DNA of 64,000 nucleotides from Thermoplasmata archaeon (GTDB lineage: Archaea > Thermoplasmatota > Thermoplasmata > Lutacidiplasmatales > UBA184). Below the pieces are notes generated by a model. It saw only the letters and a program-made list of their open reading frames with translations, did not search any database and was not told the DNA's origin. Shown piece by piece: positions 16,280 to 52,700 of this stretch. Position numbers and translations under genes: made by a program. The first letter of the stretch is position 1. Each line of letters starts with the position of its first letter. Where the stretch lies: assembly GCA_028864975.1 (NCBI GenBank), contig JAGWLG010000003.1, forward strand, positions 64,001 to 128,000. The letters are read 5' to 3'.

Positions 16280-17509
16280 ATGCGGATCGCGTTCTTCAGC
16301 GAGACCTTTCTCCCCGTGCACGACGGCGTGGGCCACGTGCTCGAGGACCTAGGCACTTCTCTCGTTCGGCGGGGAAACGAGGTCACGCTCTACACGACCC
16401 GGCGGCCCGGGCAGCCCCGCGAAGAGCTCTGGCCGGGGGGGATGCGCGTCGTTCGCTGCCGCTCTTTCCCCCTCCCGCACTACCCTCAATACCGGTTCGC
16501 GACCTTTCCCTACCTCCTGGCGCTCGCCCCGGGGTTCGCGCGCCGCACGGACATCGTACACGTCCACACCCCTTTCGCGATGGGAGTGACAGGCCTCCTC
16601 GCCTCCCGACGCGACCATCTTCCCATCGTCGGGACCTTCCACACGGACTTCCGGGGCATGCAAGGGAGCTTCCCGCAGAACCTCGGGATCCGGGTCTTCT
16701 TCCCGCTCGGGGGGTTCTTCAGCGAAGGGATCTACTTCCGTTGCGATACGACGACGGCCCCGACGCCGGAAGCGCTGAGGACGTTGCGCGAGCGGTTCAC
16801 CAAGCCCCCGCACTGCGACCTCGCGGTCGTGCCGAACGGCATCGACATCGTTCGTTTCCGACCGGGGTTAGGTTCGCCCGACTGGTCGTCCCGCCTCCGG
16901 TCGGAGGGGCGACCCCTGGTGACCTTCCTGGGGCGCCTCACGGCCGACAAGGGGGTCCACCGGTTCCTCGATGCCCTTCGGGAGATCCCGGAGGACCTCT
17001 CCTTCCAGGGCGTGGTGGGTGGTTCAGGGGTTGAGGAGCCCGAGGTCCGTCGCAGGATCGAGAGCGAGCGCGGTCTCCGGGGCCGCGTGGTCGCCGTCGG
17101 GTTCGTGAAGGACGACGAGAAGCCTGCCCTCCTCGCCCAGAGCCGGGTGTTCGTGCTTCCCTCCCTCGCGGACACCTCGTCGGTGTCGACCCTGGAGGCG
17201 ATGGCGTCGGGGTGCGCGTGCGTGGTCACCGACCGCGGGGGACCCCGGGAGCTCGTCATGGACGGACGGAACGCGCTCCTCGCGGACCCGACCGACCCGA
17301 CGGCGATCCGCGGGGCCGTGGAACGGCTCCTCCGGGACCCCGAGCGCGCTCGCTGGCTCGGGAGCAACGCCGTGGAGTATGTCCGCGCTCACGCCTCGGT
17401 CGAGCACATGGCCGAGCAGTACCTCGAGATCTACGAGCGGTGCCTGGGACGCGGGAGCTCAGCGCAAGCACGACCTGGGACTCCGGTGCTTACGCGTGGC
17501 ATACCGTGA
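16280..17509 (+). CDS. Glycosyltransferase family 4 (GT-B)
   Basis: MRIAFFSETFLP..DGV...VHVHTP...PNGID...FLGRL..DKG...FVLPS..DT....LEAMASG. Confidence 0.92.
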   Translation: MRIAFFSETFLPVHDGVGHVLEDLGTSLVRRGNEVTLYTTRRPGQPREELWPGGMRVVRCRSFPLPHYPQYRFATFPYLLALAPGFARRTDIVHVHTPFAMGVTGLLASRRDHLPIVGTFHTDFRGMQGSFPQNLGIRVFFPLGGFFSEGIYFRCDTTTAPTPEALRTLRERFTKPPHCDLAVVPNGIDIVRFRPGLGSPDWSSRLRSEGRPLVTFLGRLTADKGVHRFLDALREIPEDLSFQGVVGGSGVEEPEVRRRIESERGLRGRVVAVGFVKDDEKPALLAQSRVFVLPSLADTSSVSTLEAMASGCACVVTDRGGPRELVMDGRNALLADPTDPTAIRGAVERLLRDPERARWLGSNAVEYVRAHASVEHMAEQYLEIYERCLGRGSSAQARPGTPVLTRGIP

Positions 17510-17868
17510 TCCCTGCGCACTACTCGGCCGACGTGTTCCTCTCCGGCTTCGCGTACATGGTCCCTGAGGGGGGCCTCCCGGCGGGGACCCGTGTGACGTG
17601 GCAGGCGCACTTCTCCACGAGCGAGAATTGTCTCTCGGTGAATTGGAAGTGGGCGGCGGCCGTCTGCACCAGTTCCGGGGAGAATGCCCACATCGGTGTG
17701 AAGCCGGTGGACGACAATCAGCTCAGCCTGTACAAGAACAGCGACCACGCCGGCACCCCCGAGTACGAGAAGGCCTACCTCACCCGGGGAGCGAGGGGGG
17801 GTGGCGGGTCGAACTACACAGGGTCCTACAGCGGTACCTTGGGTATCCGGGGAGGGAGCTGCCCGTAG
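17506..17868 (+). CDS. Orphan or remnant extracellular-type domain (120 aa)
   Basis: GTG overlapping the GT stop (GTGA); protein-like sequence SVNWKWAAAV..GVKPVD..SDHAGTPE..GARGGGGSNYTGSYSG; no signal peptide. Confidence 0.45.
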   Translation: MIPAHYSADVFLSGFAYMVPEGGLPAGTRVTWQAHFSTSENCLSVNWKWAAAVCTSSGENAHIGVKPVDDNQLSLYKNSDHAGTPEYEKAYLTRGARGGGGSNYTGSYSGTLGIRGGSCP

Positions 17869-18080
17869 GTTAGGGTCGGCGCCCCTCCCCGCGCCGTCGA
17901 GGCGCTTCGGACCGCTGGGCCCGGCGTTGGGGGCCAGCATGGGATTCCAGACACTCGGGCGAGTCGCTAGACCTCGTCGGCAAGAAAGAGGCCCATGATG
18001 GCCCGGACCTAGGAAGTATATCCGATGCTCAGCGATCGACCGACTCGCCGGCTACCGGGCGTTGCGAGGAGGAACCGAAG

Positions 18081-19109
18081 ATGCCGACCCAGACGAATCG
18101 GAGATGGCTCATTGCGAAACCCCTAGAGGGGAAGCTTTCGCAGGCCAACTTCCGCTGGATGGAGTCCACCGTTCCCTCGGTGGCCGACGGTCAGTTCCTG
18201 GTCCACAATCGGTGGCTCTCTGTCGACCCGACCCAGGTCCTCGTCTTCAACAGCGGGGACCCTCCCGGGAGTGCCGTCCCCATCGGGGAGGCCCCTTGGT
18301 CGCTGGCGGTGTCCGAGGTTGTCGAGTCCCGCCACCCGGCTTTCTCGCGAGGAGACATCGTGCACGGTCAGATGGCCTGGGAGGACTACACCCTCACAGA
18401 TGGGACAGGATTCAACCCTGCTTTCCCGGTGCCGGCGGGGATCCCGCTCGACTGGGCGGCCGGAGCTCTGGGGCTCACAGGACTCGTGGCGTACTTCGGC
18501 CTCCACGAGGTGGCCCGGCCAAAGCCTGGAGAAACCTTCGTCATCTCCGGCGCGGCGGGAGGGGTCGGATCGATCGCGTCCCAGTTGGCCAAGATCCACG
18601 GGCTTCGGGTCATCGGTATCGCCGGAAGTCCGGCCAAGTGTGATTGGCTTGTTCGGGAGGCCGGTGTCGACGCCGCCATCAACTATCACCAAGAGGATGT
18701 CGGCAAGCGGCTGACCGAGCTCTGTCCTCAGGGCATCGACATCTTCTTCGACACCGTGGGTGGGCCAACCCTCGAGCTCGCGCTGCATCGACTGCGAACG
18801 CGCGGTCGCGTGGTCCTTTGCGGGATAACCTCGCAGTACCTCGCGGATCCTCCCGCGCCAGGTCCGGCGAACTTGGTCCAGCTCATCATGGTCAACGGGC
18901 GTATGGAGGGATTCCTGGGAAGGGACTTCATCCCACGGCGGTCCGAAGCGTTCGACGCCATGCTGCCGCTCCTTCGATCGGGACGCCTGAAGTCCAAGGA
19001 GGATGTGCTGGTGGGGCTGCGAGAGGCGCCGAAAGCTCTCGCACGTCTTCTCTCGGGGGAGAACGTCGGGAAGCAGCTCGTGCGTATGGACGAACCCCCC
19101 GGGAGTTGA
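18081..19109 (+). CDS. NADP-dependent oxidoreductase (MDR, CurA/prostaglandin reductase-like)
   Basis: WLSVDP...ALGLTGLVAYFGL...GETFVISGAAGGVGS..SQLAKI.G.RVIG.AGS..K...FFDTVGG...G...GKQLV. Confidence 0.92.
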   Translation: MPTQTNRRWLIAKPLEGKLSQANFRWMESTVPSVADGQFLVHNRWLSVDPTQVLVFNSGDPPGSAVPIGEAPWSLAVSEVVESRHPAFSRGDIVHGQMAWEDYTLTDGTGFNPAFPVPAGIPLDWAAGALGLTGLVAYFGLHEVARPKPGETFVISGAAGGVGSIASQLAKIHGLRVIGIAGSPAKCDWLVREAGVDAAINYHQEDVGKRLTELCPQGIDIFFDTVGGPTLELALHRLRTRGRVVLCGITSQYLADPPAPGPANLVQLIMVNGRMEGFLGRDFIPRRSEAFDAMLPLLRSGRLKSKEDVLVGLREAPKALARLLSGENVGKQLVRMDEPPGS

Positions 19110-19216
19110 GGCCCTCGGTCGCCCCGGAGCTGGCGGTCGGCGATCTCCCTCTGGGCTACTGAGGCCGGAGGGAGGGGTCTCGAGGGCCGCGTTGGTCCGT
19201 GTCGAACGTCGCTCGA

Positions 19217-19246
19217 GGAGGACTCGGCCGCCTCGACCCCCTCCTC
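19217..19246. repeat. 30-bp exact direct repeat, copy 1 (intergenic)
   Basis: GGAGGACTCGGCCGCCTCGACCCCCTCCTC, identical to 22463-22492. Confidence 0.9.
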
Positions 19247-19338
19247 CGCCCCCCGACGACCACATAGAGACTCACCAGGTCCTCCACGGGGGCCCTGCGG
19301 CGAAGGGCGTCCCGGGAGCGGACGAGTTGCCGGCGCTT

Positions 19339-21951
19339 TCAACCCTGGGGCGGAAACCCCGGAGGCGGGCCGGGTTGGACTGGCCAAGGCGGGGGCGTTG
19401 GCGGTCGTCTCCTTCGCTGCACGAGAACGACCGCGGGTACGGAGATCGCGAGTGCGATGACCACGACGATCAGCACCAGGCTCATCGTGGTGCTGAGCCC
19501 GAGCAGGCTGAAGCCGGGGGCCTGCTGCGTGTCGCAGGGCGGCTGGGCGGGGCCGACGACCGTGACGGAAGTGTTCGACCACGCGTGCGTGCTGCGCGTG
19601 TCCGTTACCTCCAAGCTCACCGAGTAGGAGCCCACGGAGCCGAACGAGTGGGAGACATTTCGCCCGGTCTGGGGAGAGGAGCCATCGCCGAAGGTCCACG
19701 AGAAGGCGTAGGCCGGAGCACCGCCCCTCGCAGAACCCTCGAAAGAGTCGACGAACGGACTGAGAGCGCCCCCATTGCATGACCCCGTCAGGCTCCCGGA
19801 CGTGGCACTCGCGTTCCCGAAGGCGACGAGCTGAGGCGGCTGGCCTCCCGAGCTCGCGGCGACCGTGATCGCGACCGAGTTGCTCCCCGCGACGGTCGAC
19901 GACGCGTCGGTCGCCCAAACGCGGTAAGTGTAAGTGCCCGGGTGGGCGAAGGACAGGGCCGAGCCGCCGCAGCCAATTAGGGATGTGTTGGTCCCATTGA
20001 GGGACCACGCGCAGGTGTACGGGGAGACCCCGCCGGAGACGGTAGGGGTCAGGGTCACGGATTGCCCCACGGTGGCCGAGACGGAGGAGGGCGTCAGCCC
20101 CACCGAGAGCGGCGTGCTGGGGGTGGTGTAATTGACCCACAGACTGCCGTTGGTGCTGACCGAGACGTTCCCCCACGAGTTCGTGAGGATCTGGGACCGG
20201 CCCGCCGGCATCTGGAAGGTCGTCTGCGAGAAGGTCTCTCCGGTGCAGGGGAGGGCGTGCACGGGGTATCTCCCGCCCAAGAAGGTGGCAACGCTGCCCG
20301 TTGCCTGGGTCGTCCCGTTGAAGCTCACCGGGGAGCATGCTGCGGGAGAGACCTGGAAGGAGATCGTGTAATGTGCGGGCGGAGGGACCCAGGTGTAGGA
20401 GGCGGTGAGCGTCCCGTTCCCCCAGACCCCGACCGTCGTCGGGTTGCCCCCTAGGCTGGGGAGGGTCAGGGAGCCCGTAGCGGTCCACTTGGAGAAGGAA
20501 TATCCCAGGCAAGTCAGAGCGTTGGCTGAGTAGTTGCCGTCGGTGAACTGGACCCGTGCCCCATTGTTCTCGTTGAGCCCCCCGAAGATGACCGGGCCGC
20601 AGGCAGGGGGAGAGATCACGAACGTCACATTCCCCGCGTGCAGGGTCTTGCCGCTCCACGTGTAGTAGGCGGTCAGGCTCCCCGTCCCGGTGACGTTCGC
20701 GAAACCGCCGGCCGAGGTCGGCCTCTGGACCGTGACCCCACCGGTGGAGTTCCATTGCTGGAAGGAGAAGTCGGTGCAGGGGTTCGCGACGATGGAGTAG
20801 GTCCCGGCGACATAGGAGCCGGTGGAGCCGCTCCCTTGGGACGTACCGTTGAAGGCGATGGGGCAGGTGGCAGGATGGACGAAGAAGGAGATGGTCGGAG
20901 GGGATGTCGTCAAGTTCCCGAAGACGTATCCTGAGGCAAGTTGGGCCGTGTCTCCCTGGAAGTAGTCCAGGTCGACGTTCGAGGTCCCACTGATCCCAGG
21001 TACGGTACCCGTGGCCGAGTGCTGCCAGAAAGTCCAAGTGGGCCAGATCCCGGTGTTGGGGCTGCTCACGCCCCAGTTGGCGATCCAGAGGGGCCAGGTC
21101 GTGAGGTAGGGGTCGAGACAGCCTGTGACCTCGCTGACCCCGGTGTAGAGGACAGGGGTGACCCCGGTATACCCGTCATGGGCGGCGATGTACTGCTGAA
21201 CCGTGGACATCCACATGTCGACCCACGTCGACATGGCGTTGTTGCTGATGGTCCCGCATCCTTCCTCCAGATCAAGGGCGGGGTAGAGGTAGCCGGAGGA
21301 GAAGTACGGCGCGGCGATGGACAAGTAGTGGTTGGCTTCCGTCGTGGCATTGGTCGCGATACAACCGACGGAGCTGTCCGTCGCAGGGCAGGCGAAGTCG
21401 TATCCCGCCATCCAGAGACCCGCGGCTTTTCCGGCGGGCATGTAGGTCGTGAAGGTAGGGTCGACAAAGCTCGCCCCCTGCGTGGCCTTGGTGAAGTCGA
21501 ACTTGTATCCCGCGCTCAGAACATTCGTCCAGTTCGTCACGGTCTCGTAGTGGGACGTATCGACCCCGTTCACTTCTGCTACGAACGGGCGAGAAGGGTT
21601 CGGGCCCCCGGCCGGGAAACCCGACGGCGTCGCGGTGCCCCCCGAGAAGCGTGTCGGACCTTGGACGGAACCGAGGAGCAGAAGGACAAGGAGCGCAGCC
21701 ACCCAGATGAGGCGTCCCCCGGGGCGATGCGCAGAGAGACCGAGCCGCGTCCCAAGCGACGATCCTCGAGCGGAAGGCCCGGGGCCCTCGGGAGTCCCCC
21801 TCCAAGGGATGGACCGACGGAACGCTCCCGGGGCAAGTTGGCCGGACCCACCTGGGGCGCCGGGCCCGAGGGGGAGTGCGGGCAGGGGGCGCAGCACCGT
21901 AGCGACGAGCGCGAACGCGGCCGAAGGCCGTGCCGGAGGCCGCCGCGACAT
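19339..21951 (-). CDS. Membrane-anchored GH25 (Chalaropsis-type) muramidase with beta-sandwich and PKD stalk
   Basis: GVDTSHY...KATQG...D..F...LDLEE..PVLYT..WPLWIANW...WTFWQHS.TG.VPGI...VDLDYF; three InlB-B-like repeats, two PKD-like modules, C-terminal TM plus RRRR and Pro tail; TATA-like AAATAG about 25-30 nt upstream. Confidence 0.9.
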   Translation of the reverse strand: MSRRPPARPSAAFALVATVLRPLPALPLGPGAPGGSGQLAPGAFRRSIPWRGTPEGPGPSARGSSLGTRLGLSAHRPGGRLIWVAALLVLLLLGSVQGPTRFSGGTATPSGFPAGGPNPSRPFVAEVNGVDTSHYETVTNWTNVLSAGYKFDFTKATQGASFVDPTFTTYMPAGKAAGLWMAGYDFACPATDSSVGCIATNATTEANHYLSIAAPYFSSGYLYPALDLEEGCGTISNNAMSTWVDMWMSTVQQYIAAHDGYTGVTPVLYTGVSEVTGCLDPYLTTWPLWIANWGVSSPNTGIWPTWTFWQHSATGTVPGISGTSNVDLDYFQGDTAQLASGYVFGNLTTSPPTISFFVHPATCPIAFNGTSQGSGSTGSYVAGTYSIVANPCTDFSFQQWNSTGGVTVQRPTSAGGFANVTGTGSLTAYYTWSGKTLHAGNVTFVISPPACGPVIFGGLNENNGARVQFTDGNYSANALTCLGYSFSKWTATGSLTLPSLGGNPTTVGVWGNGTLTASYTWVPPPAHYTISFQVSPAACSPVSFNGTTQATGSVATFLGGRYPVHALPCTGETFSQTTFQMPAGRSQILTNSWGNVSVSTNGSLWVNYTTPSTPLSVGLTPSSVSATVGQSVTLTPTVSGGVSPYTCAWSLNGTNTSLIGCGGSALSFAHPGTYTYRVWATDASSTVAGSNSVAITVAASSGGQPPQLVAFGNASATSGSLTGSCNGGALSPFVDSFEGSARGGAPAYAFSWTFGDGSSPQTGRNVSHSFGSVGSYSVSLEVTDTRSTHAWSNTSVTVVGPAQPPCDTQQAPGFSLLGLSTTMSLVLIVVVIALAISVPAVVLVQRRRRPPTPPPWPVQPGPPPGFPPQG

Positions 21952-22207
21952 CCTGAGCCCGATACCCGTCCCCCGCTATTTGGCCCCTTTCACCGACGAC
22001 CGGACCGGACCCTGGGCCGGACCCCCCCTTTCTGTCCCGGCACACGCGACCGCGCGTGCCGCTCGAGCACGACCCGCCCACGACCCCCCGGCCTGCGTCT
22101 CGATGAACGGCTCACCGATCGCGAGAACCAAGTCCGCTCCCACCTCGAGGTTGCGGGGTGACGGGGCGAGAGCAAGCTTGGCGGTCTCGGTGGGGTCCGC
22201 GGTTCCG

Positions 22208-23053
22208 CTACGTGGCCCGCACGACGTGGTTAAAGTCCCGTTCCAGCGTCGCGACCTGCGAGCGGCTGAACGCGCCGGGATCGACCGACAGCACGAGCAG
22301 CCCGTGGTGCTGCTGGACCTTGCTGTGCAGCCAGTAGACGAACTTCGTCGTGAGGTCGAAGGAGTTCTGCGTGTTGAGGAACTCGACCGCCTCGAGGTAG
22401 ACGAGCGCGGGCTCGGGCGTTCCGTTGAGGAAGTTGTCGACGCGCCCCGTGAGCTGCGTCGGGGAGGACTCGGCCGCCTCGACCCCCTCCTCGGTGGTCC
22501 CTTCGACACCCAGGTGGAGGATCACCAGGTCCTCGACAGGGGCCATGCGACGCAGTTCGTTCGGAAGTCTGGTGATGGCGAGCCCTCTTCCTACCCGGGG
22601 GAGGAGTTCGCGGAGGAACGAGCGCGCGACCTGGCGGGTCTCCTCCAGGAAGAGGTAGTTGTACCCTGGGACCGCCGGGGGGAAAGCGGGCGCGCTCGAG
22701 GAGCCCCGCGGCTGGACGCGCACGAGGCTCTCGACGGGGATGCCGACCGGGGTCGAGAGCAGGGTCTTCCGCTTGAGGCGCACTTCCTCGTCGAGGTGCC
22801 CGAGCCGGCTCTCGACGAAGACCCGGATCTCGGAAGGGGTGTGGCCCCTCGCGACCAGACGGGTCACGAAGTGGAGCGCGTCGCGGGCCCCATCGCCCCA
22901 GCCTCGGGCGTAGGAGGTCGGTCCGTCCCCCCTGGAGGAGGAAGTGTCCGAGTCGTCCAGGGCTTGGGGCTCCGTGTCGGTGCCCTCCTCTTCGTTCGCT
23001 CGTCGAGGGGCGGGGGACGCGGCCGGGGGAAGGCCTCCCGTTCGGCCGGTCAC
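22208..23053 (-). CDS. DUF835 domain-containing protein (degenerate P-loop/KaiC-like fold)
   Basis: GLAITRLP...LVYLEAVEFL...NSF....KFVYWL......GLLVLSVDPGAF......LERDF; GTG start overlaps the upstream stop. Confidence 0.75.
   Translation of the reverse strand: MTGRTGGLPPAASPAPRRANEEEGTDTEPQALDDSDTSSSRGDGPTSYARGWGDGARDALHFVTRLVARGHTPSEIRVFVESRLGHLDEEVRLKRKTLLSTPVGIPVESLVRVQPRGSSSAPAFPPAVPGYNYLFLEETRQVARSFLRELLPRVGRGLAITRLPNELRRMAPVEDLVILHLGVEGTTEEGVEAAESSPTQLTGRVDNFLNGTPEPALVYLEAVEFLNTQNSFDLTTKFVYWLHSKVQQHHGLLVLSVDPGAFSRSQVATLERDFNHVVRAT
22463..22492. repeat. 30-bp exact direct repeat, copy 2 (inside the DUF835 CDS)
   Basis: Identical to 19217-19246; encodes EEGVEAAESS on the minus strand. 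Confidence 0.9.
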
Positions 23054-49783: not shown

Positions 49784-52700
49784 ATGGTGGGGGCGTTGCG
49801 TCCCAGGACCCCCCTCTCCGCTGGCGATGTTCGGGCGCTTTCACGCACATGCACCCTCGTGGTCTTGACGGCCCTTCTCCTGCCGACAGGAGGTCTCCCC
49901 ACACACGGCCTGGCGGCGTCGGCCCCCTCCCCATCCACCCTGTCGTCGCACTCCTCCACGACCTCGGCCGGAGGCTCTAGTTCGCCGAACGTCCCTTCGG
50001 CGACGACGTTCCCGTGGTACGGGGGCCTCGATTACTCCGGGACGAACACGAGCGGGGTCGCCCTCTTCCTGGGCAATCTCACGATTCCCTCCGGGGTCAA
50101 CGACGCTTTCGGGTTCAACTACACGGCGGGGGTCGGAGCGCCGGACCTTTCCTGCTCCCGGGCCTCGGCGGGGATCGAGGACAGCGCGGGGGTCTGGAGG
50201 TTCCACTGGTCCCTGACTCCTCTCGGCGGGGCGACCCGGGAGGGATGGGCGCTCCATCTCGCTCCCGGGGACACCTATCAGCTGATGGTCGCCGTGGCCG
50301 CGGGCCGTCTCATCTCCTCGGTCTACAACGTCTCCAACGGCAACTTCTACCCCGCGTCCACCATCCCCGACGCGTACGGGGCGCTCTCGGACGGAAGTTC
50401 CGGGTTGCTCACCGGCCCGTCGACCTGCGCGGGGGCGACCGTAGGGCTCCAGGTGAACCTGACCGTCCGGGCGATCTTCGGGGGCTCCACCCCCTCGCGC
50501 GACCTGTTCGTTCAGGACGAAGGGATCGCGCTCGCTTCCTCGTCGACCACCATCCTTGAGGCCCCGAACCTGTGGAACCCCTACTTCCACAGCGCCCCGG
50601 CGGCCTTCGCCCCTGCGCAGTCGTGGGCGACCTCCGACCTGCTGGTCCTCGTGAGCGAACATCCTCCCCTCTCCTTGTCGACGACCACCGCACCACCCAC
50701 GGACCTCGACGTGGGGATGGCGGCCTCGGTGGGCATTGCCGGGGTGCCTCACACGCTCAAAGTGGGAGGGAACACCAACACCTACGTCTTCTCGCAGGTC
50801 GAGTTCGGTGGCTACCCGGGGACGGGGGTCCTCTCGTTCGCGACGTGCCACAGCCTGAACGGATCGAACTCGAACCCCGGTTATCCTGGCGGGGACCCGG
50901 GGATTCCCGGGGAGTACGGCTACTCGAGCAACACGACGGTCTCCGACATCTTCCTCTCCTATGTCCTCGACCCCGCGACGAACCTTTCCGTCGACGAACG
51001 CTGCTTCACGGGGGCGCTGACGACCGCAGGGAACCTGTCGGTCTGGGGTCTCTCCTACTTGACCTACGAGACCTACATCACGACGAACCCCACGACGACC
51101 TACGTGGACGCGCTCTCGAGCGGGCCCAGGGAACAGCTCGCGATGAACGCCTTGAGCTGGAACGTCGCGGTCCATGCGCTGCCCCGGGTCGGAGCGTCGA
51201 GCTCGACCCCCAAGGTCCTGGTCGGACAGAACGCCGTTTTCAACGGGTGGGAACAGGGAGGATCTCCCACGCTCACCTACACCTGGTACGTGGACGGGGC
51301 TCCGCAAGGGACCTGCACGACGCTCACCTGTTCGATCTCCTGGGGGAGCGCCGGGGGCCACCAGGTGTGGGTTGCCGTGGTGGACGGGTACGGGGCTCGG
51401 GCCGTGAGCGCCCATCTCAACGAGACCGTCTACCCGGCGCTCGGGGTCAGCATCGCGCCGTACCCGACCTTGCTCGGCACGGTGGGAACCCCGGCCGCGT
51501 TCGCGGCCTCGGTCTCAGGAGGGACCTGGGGGAACCGCTACGACTTCTGGGTGAACGGCAGCGGGTCGCCGATCCAACCCGGCACGAGCGGGAGCTTCAC
51601 GTTCGTTCCTCCCCACGGCACGACCTACCAGGTCTGGGTCGTCGTCAACGACTCTTCCGGGAACGTCGCGGTCTCGCCGCACACGAACCTGACGGTGGCC
51701 TGGGGGCTCGCAGCGCTGCTCTCGCCGCTCTCCGTGGCGCTGGAGCTGGGGACAGGGACCCAGGCCACGCTCGGGGTGGCTCTCTCGGGTGGAGCTCCTC
51801 CGTATACGGTGAACTGGAACGCTCCGGGGTCGACCCTGCTGGGGACGTGCTCGCGCCAGTGCAACATCAGTTCCGCTCCGACCTCGGGCCTTCCCGGGAC
51901 CTACCCCGTGTGGGTGGGGCTCACCGACTCCGGGGGAAGGTACGTGGCCAGCGCCCACGCGAACCTGACCATCGTCCCAGGGCTGGCCTTCTCGGCCTGG
52001 AAGGCCCTCGCCACGGTCGACGCGGGGGCGAACGTGACTTTGAACGCGACCTTCTCGGGGGGGATGGGCCCGTTCACCTACGCCTGGAGCCAGAACGGGA
52101 AGGCGGTCGCATCTTGTGCCGCCACCTCGAACTGTTCGATGACGTTCCCGAGCACCGGTAGCTGGCAGGTGCAGGTGCTCGCCTCCGACCCCCTGGGCGG
52201 GCGCGCGACCTCCCGCGTGCTGTGGGTCAACGCGACCTCCCCCCTCGAGGTCCGGATCTCTCCCCTTTCCGGTACTGGCGAGGTGGGGCTCTCGGAGCTC
52301 CTCGACGCGACCGTGCTGAACGGAACCGGGGGGGTCGCCTACGGGTTCCTGACGGACCGGAGCGTGGGCCCCTTCGGGGTCGGGCCCTCGAACCAGTACC
52401 TCTGGTCCCCCACCGTGAGCGGACCGACGCAGCTCTGGGCGGAGGCTAACGACTCGTCGGGCTTCCGCAACGTGAGCGGCCACCTGAACCTCTCCGTTCT
52501 CCCTCCCCTCGCCGTGACCCTCTCGCCGTCGCCCATCACGTCTGTCGCGGCAGGAGGGACGCTGAACGCGACGGCGACCGTGTCGGGGGGTCTCGCGAGC
52601 TTCACCTACCTTTGGTACGGCGATGGGACCCCCGTGGGAAGCTGCGCCCTGAGCTTCTGTGTGTTCCGATGGACGACGACCGGCATCCACGAGATCTGGG

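Follow-up and report, generated by a model that had tools for sequence, protein, structure and literature searches.

An open reading frame (ORF) in the window, by which we mean the whole stretch of 64,000 nucleotides that was analyzed from an uncultured Thermoplasmata archaeon, is shown by sequence comparisons to be a chimera in which a GH25 lysozyme head has been joined to the stalk-anchor cassette of a beta-propeller protein. We consider it probable that the product of this gene is a stalk-held, surface-displayed GH25 muramidase, predicted to be a type I membrane glycoprotein that acts on bacterial peptidoglycan. The ORF is real, with a GC content at third codon positions (GC3) of 0.83 in a window of 68% GC, and the assignment of its head as a muramidase domain was based on the following features:

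19339..21951, reverse strand: whole GH25 ORF, 870 amino acids plus stop from the first ATG
20917..21576, reverse strand: GH25 muramidase domain, residues 126-345 (Pfam, alignment and structure model)
21559-21561, reverse strand: catalytic codon D131
21271-21273, reverse strand: catalytic codon D227
21265-21267, reverse strand: catalytic codon E229
20971-20973, reverse strand: catalytic codon D327

The Pfam profile Glyco_hydro_25 (PF01183) was matched at residues 130-320 with an E-value of 6.7e-28 and 98.7 bits against a cut-off of 27 (103.6 bits in the genome-wide scan), and the match spans the full profile (positions 1-180 of 180). The closest solved relative of the head is the cellosyl of Streptomyces coelicolor (1jfx; E 8e-23, 30% identity). 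Using the GH25 catalytic set as the criterion (D9, D98, E100 and D198 of cellosyl; D10, D92, E94 and D182 of Cpl-1), the alignment to 1jfx paired D131 of the motif GVDTSHY with D9, D227 and E229 of LDLE with D98 and E100, and D327 of VDLD with D198, and none of the four residues varied among 24 aligned archaeal homologues. The AlphaFold model of residues 120-345, which was computed from this alignment (mean pLDDT 95.5, pTM 0.92), shows the (beta/alpha)5beta3 barrel fold of GH25, and its 11 top Foldseek matches were all GH25 structures, led by 1jfx (E 1.5e-19, TM-scores 0.79/0.82). Two Cys pairs (188/197 and 232/278) lie inside the domain. A preliminary description of this DNA had already read the head as a GH25 domain with the Chalaropsis-type acidic residues, a reading that the profile match, the cellosyl alignment and the invariance among homologues bear out, and the barrel and active site for which it proposed that a structure model be inspected are both present. 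The head was assigned as a GH25 (Chalaropsis-type) domain that appears catalytically intact, with muramidase activity predicted. A clade-specific insertion of 9 residues was also observed in it, at residues ~189-199 (window positions about 21355-21387) in the segment that links the third barrel strand to the helix after it; the Cys pair C188/C197 and the sequon N201 accompany this insertion, which is found in about one-third of the GH25 domains of the family that were aligned.

The remainder of the protein consists of a stalk and an anchor, which were delimited as follows:

20653..20895, reverse strand: stalk repeat 1, residues 353-433, beta-sandwich, Cys 363/392 (model, alignment)
20389..20628, reverse strand: stalk repeat 2, residues 442-521, Cys 451/481 (model, alignment)
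20125..20367, reverse strand: stalk repeat 3, residues 529-609, Cys 539/569 (model, alignment)
19852..20118, reverse strand: PKD/Ig-like module 1, residues 612-700, Cys 647/661 (weak Pfam matches, PDB, model)
19558..19809, reverse strand: PKD module 2, residues 715-798, Cys 725/806 (Pfam, PDB)
19411..19509, reverse strand: C-terminal transmembrane helix, about residues 815-847, preceded by APGF (hydropathy scan)
19342..19410, reverse strand: cytoplasmic tail of RRRR and then 19 Pro-rich residues, isoelectric point (pI) 12

The three stalk repeats, each of ~80 residues with a single Cys pair, start past the ...SGYVFG end of the GH25 domain. Module 1 gave weak Pfam matches to Ig_3 and to K319L-like PKD and matched the Ig of phage decoration proteins in the PDB, and module 2 was matched by PKD_4 (1.4e-12) and PKD (6.7e-10, at residues 740-796) in Pfam and by ColH PKD in the PDB. 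The model of the stalk comprises five all-beta modules (pLDDT 85.8, pTM 0.40), the low pTM being expected for beads on a string, and it resembles the strings of Ig-like domains in the Aureispira grappling-hook protein and in giant adhesins. All 14 Cys of the protein fall in the predicted ectodomain as seven within-domain pairs, and the ectodomain contains 18 N-x-S/T sequons compared with 8.6 +/- 2.5 in shuffled sequences (P = 2e-4); the excess of sequons and the pairing of the Cys both fit an extracellular glycoprotein. Based on these features the window protein was classed as a type I membrane-anchored archaeal surface glycoprotein, with signal cleavage and glycosylation predicted. The three Cys-paired beta-sandwich repeats, the two PKD-like modules, the C-terminal transmembrane segment and the many sequons claimed in the preliminary description were thus all recovered, the first two by the Cys positions and the five-module model, and the last two by the helix at 815-847 with its RRRR and by the sequon counts.

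A different mode of anchoring, by PGF-CTERM and archaeosortase A, was considered and set aside: the APGF is suggestive, but there are 23 residues after the helix and the paralogues are without PGF. The PGF-CTERM model (TIGR04126) gave no match to the window protein at E <= 1, and no match to archaeosortase PF09721 was found in the genome, the latter being a weak negative in that the H. volcanii control gave none either. A scan of the window protein with NCBIfam gave nothing relevant.

The chimeric make-up of the gene became apparent when head and stalk were compared separately with other proteins. The stalk and anchor (residues 349-814) are 62% identical over 466 residues to those of P0108, a protein of a congener, and the two are collinear module by module, all Cys pairs and the RRRR stop being matched as well; P0108, however, has a beta-propeller head and no GH25 domain. 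The junction between head and stalk in the window protein falls directly after the ...GYVFG that ends the GH25 domain. Other close stalks bear YVTN propellers (e.g., P0109 and P0111) or a sedolisin pro-domain (P0119, a sedolisin-type protease of a relative), and the nearest stalks in the same genome (41-49% identity) carry YncE-like or Kelch propeller heads, with a GH57 head on a related stalk. The nearest relatives of the head (53-57% identity), on the other hand, are mounted on other stalks, which are PKD-first. The likeness of the window protein to the YVTN beta-propeller/PKD surface proteins of the same lineage is therefore that of a homologous stalk and anchor, the difference being that those proteins display a beta-propeller, presumably for binding, where the window protein displays an enzyme.

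The stalk had previously been described as host-type, and this proved sound, as the same type is common to dozens of surface proteins in the genome, with beta-propeller, Kelch or GH57 heads. Its proposed likeness to the surface protein encoded at 49784 of the window is genuine, if remote (25-35% identity, E 7e-12), the stalks at 62% identity being found elsewhere; the stalk repeats align with that protein at 35% identity near its Flg_new_2 (divergent InlB B-repeat) region, which is where repeat 1 aligns. Related proteins with B-repeat/PKD stalks were observed in the genome at C75:5547-8903 (L032), with a GH57 head (E 4.5e-55), and at C46:55622-62461 (L026) and C8:4355-7384 (L027), with YncE-like and Kelch propeller heads, those on C46 being two tandem paralogues. 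The congener propeller protein with the most similar stalk, P0109, lies within a ~7-kb stretch (L137:2612-9864, G002:C39) whose counterpart in the genome studied here amounts to about 190 bp (C59:62059-62250), and the only close copy of the stalk in this genome is the GH25 chimera.

The start of the protein was more difficult to assign. Candidate in-frame starts are ATG 21951, GTG 21897 and GTG 21702, the last of which is used in the public gene call and gives a protein of 787 amino acids. Codon-position periodicity is absent from the first 83 codons of the ORF, but their Pro/Arg/Gly-rich makeup would mask it. An AAATAG box was observed at window positions 21975-21990 on the reverse strand, ~27 nucleotides 5' of ATG 21951, in a spacer that is otherwise very GC-rich; this is a possible TATA box at the position expected for a leaderless archaeal transcript, and as such it bears on the choice of start. 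Whichever start is used, the hydrophobic segment IWVAALLVLLLLGSVQG comes before the enzyme domain, and like segments are found 5-55 residues from the called starts of the paralogues and orthologues. It is either the h-region of a Sec signal peptide or else a signal anchor:

21652..21720, reverse strand: N-terminal hydrophobic segment, residues 78-100 (hydropathy scan)

The window corresponds to C97:64001-128000, on a 150-kb contig of a genome of 3.6 Mb in 124 contigs (89.6% complete, 1.9% contamination). Since GH25 is mainly bacterial and phage-borne, and the GC content of the GH25 domain (0.62) is somewhat low compared with that of the window (0.68), an artefact had to be considered, in the form of contaminating bacterial DNA, of a chimeric contig in the metagenome bin or of an endolysin from a prophage. 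We regard this as extremely unlikely. The gene lies 20 kb inside a window that itself begins 64 kb into the contig, it is flanked by archaeal genes, and synteny of the flanking regions is preserved in metagenome-assembled genomes (MAGs) of three congeners, so that the concern raised earlier about a contig joined to bacterial DNA was not borne out. The GC3 of the gene resembles that of its neighbours, dozens of proteins in the genome share its stalk and anchor, MAGs obtained in separate studies contain relatives built to the same plan (on contigs of up to 596 kb), and no phage genes adjoin it.

The neighbours of the GH25 gene are a GT4 glycosyltransferase, a zinc-type dehydrogenase, a DUF835 protein and an archaeal DUF35/thiolase/HMG-CoA synthase (mevalonate) operon. 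The gene itself sits in a variable slot (window 17446-22211) in which GT4 and DUF835 are 4.77 kb apart and are separated by a small ORF, the zinc-type dehydrogenase and the GH25 gene, whereas the same slot in three congeners spans 1.18 kb and holds an aldo-keto reductase and no GH25 gene (L016:5947-7125 in G002; L017 in G001; L018/L023 in G003). The location of the GH25 gene is lineage-specific, and the fusion of head to cassette was placed in this slot between the GT4 and DUF835 genes. Just 3' of the GH25 stop there is a decayed fragment duplicated from within the DUF835 gene, which forms with its source a direct repeat with an identical core of 30 nucleotides, flanks that are about 74% identical and a 4-nucleotide deletion. 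The repeat marks the rearrangement that put the GH25 gene in the slot.

18081-19109, forward strand: zinc-type dehydrogenase
19213..19320, reverse strand: decayed copy, ~105 nucleotides, of an internal piece of the DUF835 gene (source 22459-22565)

The genome contains four GH25 ORFs, on C54, on C97 (the window copy) and two on C15, and all four have a head, a stalk, a C-terminal transmembrane segment and a basic stop, with one of them cut by a contig end. Among 41 related genomes GH25 was found in 14, always in ORFs of 800-1600 amino acids, and these included all sampled members of genus g1 (this genome and 3/3 congeners), g3 (5/5) and g8 (4/4), but it was present in only 15 of the 401 genomes sampled across the phylum. 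A hydropathy scan found an N-terminal hydrophobic segment and a C-terminal transmembrane segment followed by R/K in every complete member of the clade of family f1. In genus g8, which belongs to the same order, it was observed that GH25 is at the extreme C-terminus of ORFs of ~1600 amino acids with no C-terminal transmembrane segment (L005/L006/L063; SKW197 and KM4338-14 MAGs), and that one copy (L007, G029) has an in-frame TAG within the GH25 match.

In a 132-row maximum-likelihood (ML) tree of the GH25 domain, the f1 sequences, with the exception of one g3 pair, form a clade of 28 rows with a support of 91 in the SH-like approximate likelihood ratio test (SH-aLRT). The outlying g3 pair falls just outside, in a 33-row clade (SH-aLRT 82), and both nest in a 41-row group (SH-aLRT 95) that also holds GH25-PKD proteins of Bacteroidia with type IX secretion system (T9SS) tails and a small number of further sequences. 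The lineage made up of the paralogue C15a and its orthologues in three congeners (99) is the sister (91) of the window copy, which indicates that the window copy is an old paralogue and not a fresh import from bacteria. The phylogenetic comparison with Aciduliprofundum that had been suggested for this gene was less decisive. Sequences of Aciduliprofundum/DHVE2 were placed elsewhere in the free ML tree, in a clade with DHVE2 and Asgard sequences, but joining them with the f1 family was not rejected by the approximately unbiased (AU) test on a cleaned set of 80 rows (p = 0.105, delta log-likelihood 38). It is important to note that the GH25 loci for the tree were fetched with one motif pattern and the sampling is biased as a result; given this bias and the AU result, an acquisition independent of that in A. 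boonei is not established.

In view of the above, we propose that the N-terminal hydrophobic segment would drive Sec export, with probable cleavage after VQG, and that the C-terminal helix with its RRRR 'positive-inside' stop would anchor the protein. The five beta-sandwich modules, presumably disulfide-bonded and N-glycosylated, would hold the head off the membrane by up to roughly 20 nm, and the head would cut the MurNAc-beta-1,4-GlcNAc bond of bacterial peptidoglycan via D131/E229, assisted by D227 and D327. The substrate should be the peptidoglycan of bacteria because the organism gives no sign of murein synthesis: Mur_ligase_M had one match only in the genome, a count in line with those of the murein-free controls (M. 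jannaschii and H. volcanii), and this makes no case for a murein-like wall and accords with the preliminary description of the host as free of peptidoglycan. Lacking a wall-binding module and remaining on its producer, the protein would be limited in its action to bacterial walls or debris that touch the archaeal surface, where neighbouring bacteria may be lysed or weakened and the released material kept beside the archaeal cell. Contact dependence is something that we infer, as is any choice between a weapon and a scavenging enzyme.

Several observations weigh against such a role. The outer membrane of Gram-negative bacteria puts their peptidoglycan out of reach of a tethered enzyme. With a pI of 4.1 the GH25 domain is acidic, whereas many bactericidal lysozymes are cationic, and no recognised peptidoglycan-binding module was found in the protein, the only Pfam matches at E <= 0.1 being to GH25, PKD and Ig-type domains; the acidic head and the missing binding module argue mildly against a classical bactericidal lysozyme. 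The uncertainty of the start codon makes cleavage of the signal peptide uncertain too, and an N-terminal anchor, if uncleaved, would keep the head near the membrane and not at the tip of the stalk. Finally, searches of the genome for MurQ, Amidase_2, Amidase_3 and M23 found nothing, although at 89.6% completeness this neither proves their absence nor decides between killing and scavenging.

The same observations bear on a second explanation, which we consider possible but not likely, namely that the tethered muramidase solubilises the peptidoglycan of necromass and frees muropeptides, amino sugars and peptides for uptake. Tethering would retain these products near the producer, other hydrolase heads are borne by the same stalk cassette (GH57 in this genome and the sedolisin-type protease P0119 in a relative), and the wall-binding domain that would be needed to grip a live target is not there. 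However, the MurQ etherase and the Amidase_2 or Amidase_3 enzymes that would deal with MurNAc and the stem peptides are among those that were not found in this genome of 89.6% completeness. In addition, the patchy spread of the family, its several fast-diverging paralogues and the recent relocation of the window copy resemble the turnover of weaponised hydrolases (PMC12352652), an analogy that would favour conflict. Scavenging is also compatible with the surface-displayed muramidase that we prefer, the two readings being distinguished solely by the state of the target.

We find it improbable that the enzyme acts on the archaeon's own envelope glycan, or on a shared biofilm matrix, in a remodelling role like that of bacterial autolysins. 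Its membrane anchoring does resemble that of an autolysin, the bacterial relatives of this GH25 subfamily are surface-attached too (with T9SS or PEP-CTERM-type tails), and the lineage conserves the family and carries it in multiple copies. Nevertheless, characterised GH25 enzymes are muramidases (PMC7954357), and the single Mur_ligase_M match leaves the genome in this respect like those of M. jannaschii and H. volcanii. An essential role in the envelope is further argued against by the restriction of the family to 14/41 related genomes and by the slot without GH25 in the three congeners.

The genome also encodes a second protein that, from its domains, is predicted to be an anchored wall hydrolase, and this one has wall-binding modules:

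G000:C64:61363-64650 (L139:3364-6651), reverse strand: membrane-anchored LysM + Amidase_6/NlpC_P60 protein, 1096 amino acids

It has a signal sequence, three LysM modules as judged by eye (two of them at full Pfam significance) with poly-Gly linkers between them, and a TIM-barrel-like middle, and an SLT-like AYQES motif was seen by eye only, with no Pfam match. The Amidase_6/NlpC_P60 domain is followed by a C-terminal transmembrane segment and an RRAR tail of the same kind as in the GH25 protein.

Archaeal peptidoglycan hydrolases have been reported previously, and the window protein differs from each of those with which it was compared. Killing of Bacillaceae by the GH25 domain of A. boonei, and its induction in co-culture, were shown by Metcalf et al. 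(2014, eLife 3:e04266, PMC4241558); secretion or anchoring was not discussed in that report. Like the window protein, the A. boonei protein is a Thermoplasmata GH25; it shares the catalytic residues, begins with a signal and ends in a hydrophobic sorting/anchor tail, but the two are only 41% identical in the domain and fall in different clades of the ML tree. In an Aciduliprofundum-type GH25 of 574 amino acids that corresponds to the 1725-bp A. boonei gene (L035:3914-5635, reverse strand; G093), the N-terminus carries a hydrophobic segment and the C-terminus a tail resembling PEF-CTERM, its TIGR03024 score of 20.4 bits lying just below the cut-off of 23. The A. boonei protein combines EntFM/EntD-like wall-binding segments with this short tail. 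In the window protein, by contrast, the stalk consists of five Ig-like modules, wall-binding modules are absent, and a plain transmembrane helix leads into a cytoplasmic tail of 23 residues; the window protein also belongs to a four-copy family. GH25 proteins of 766-1161 amino acids that end in (T/I)PGFE, a helix and K/R were also observed in other Thermoplasmatota and uncultured archaea (L037/L078, L040/L096 and L042/L101), and these PGF-CTERM-like ends imply that archaeosortase-type attachment of lysozymes may be widespread. Together with the tail of the A. boonei protein, they indicate that surface attachment is common among archaeal GH25s and not unique to the window gene. The contrast with a soluble lysozyme drawn in the preliminary description consequently stands for the stalk architecture and the transmembrane anchor but was overstated with regard to A. 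boonei, whose protein has a signal and a sorting tail.

Strock et al. (2025, PLoS Biol, PMC12352652) showed that archaeal peptidoglycan hydrolases kill bacteria and named Thermoplasmatota as rich in peptidoglycan hydrolase genes. The hydrolases in that study share with the window family a secreted wall hydrolase in an archaeon free of peptidoglycan, a patchy spread and signs of the shuffling of domains. Their survey, the only systematic one to date, required a recognised cell-wall-binding domain, and transmembrane tethering was not discussed; the window family, having no such domain, falls outside their count. Their Asgard SH3_3+GH25 entries (loci L065 and L067) are in another part of the GH25 tree. 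Compared with cellosyl, a soluble secreted enzyme of 217 residues, the window domain has the 9-residue Cys insertion and is mounted on a membrane-anchored stalk. In our literature search no description of a Thermoplasmata GH25 family was found beyond PMC4241558 and PMC12352652. The protein is accordingly of a known kind, an archaeal GH25/peptidoglycan hydrolase, and what is new is a transmembrane-anchored, Ig-stalked, multi-copy family with swappable heads and, for the window copy, its chimeric make-up, its lineage-specific slot and its co-occurrence with an anchored LysM + NlpC/P60 protein.

Antagonism between archaea and bacteria is poorly documented, and the only archaeal GH25 that has been assayed is that of A. 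boonei. The GH25 catalytic domain is small and testable. The conserved, multi-copy tethered muramidases of soil and sediment Thermoplasmata imply that the published figure of 5% of archaeal genomes with wall hydrolases is an undercount, and they point to a contact-limited attack on, or harvest of, bacterial walls. The family also illustrates cleanly how heads can be swapped on a common stalk. We speculate, while regarding the idea as rather unlikely, that this lineage runs a modular surface display, in which one stalk-anchor cassette receives interchangeable heads (GH25, beta-propeller, Kelch, GH57 and sedolisin) and the window gene is a head swap caught in the act; the tethered muramidases, with the LysM-NlpC/P60 protein, might then provide for contact-dependent bacteriolysis or micropredation without a secretion machine or a diffusible toxin.

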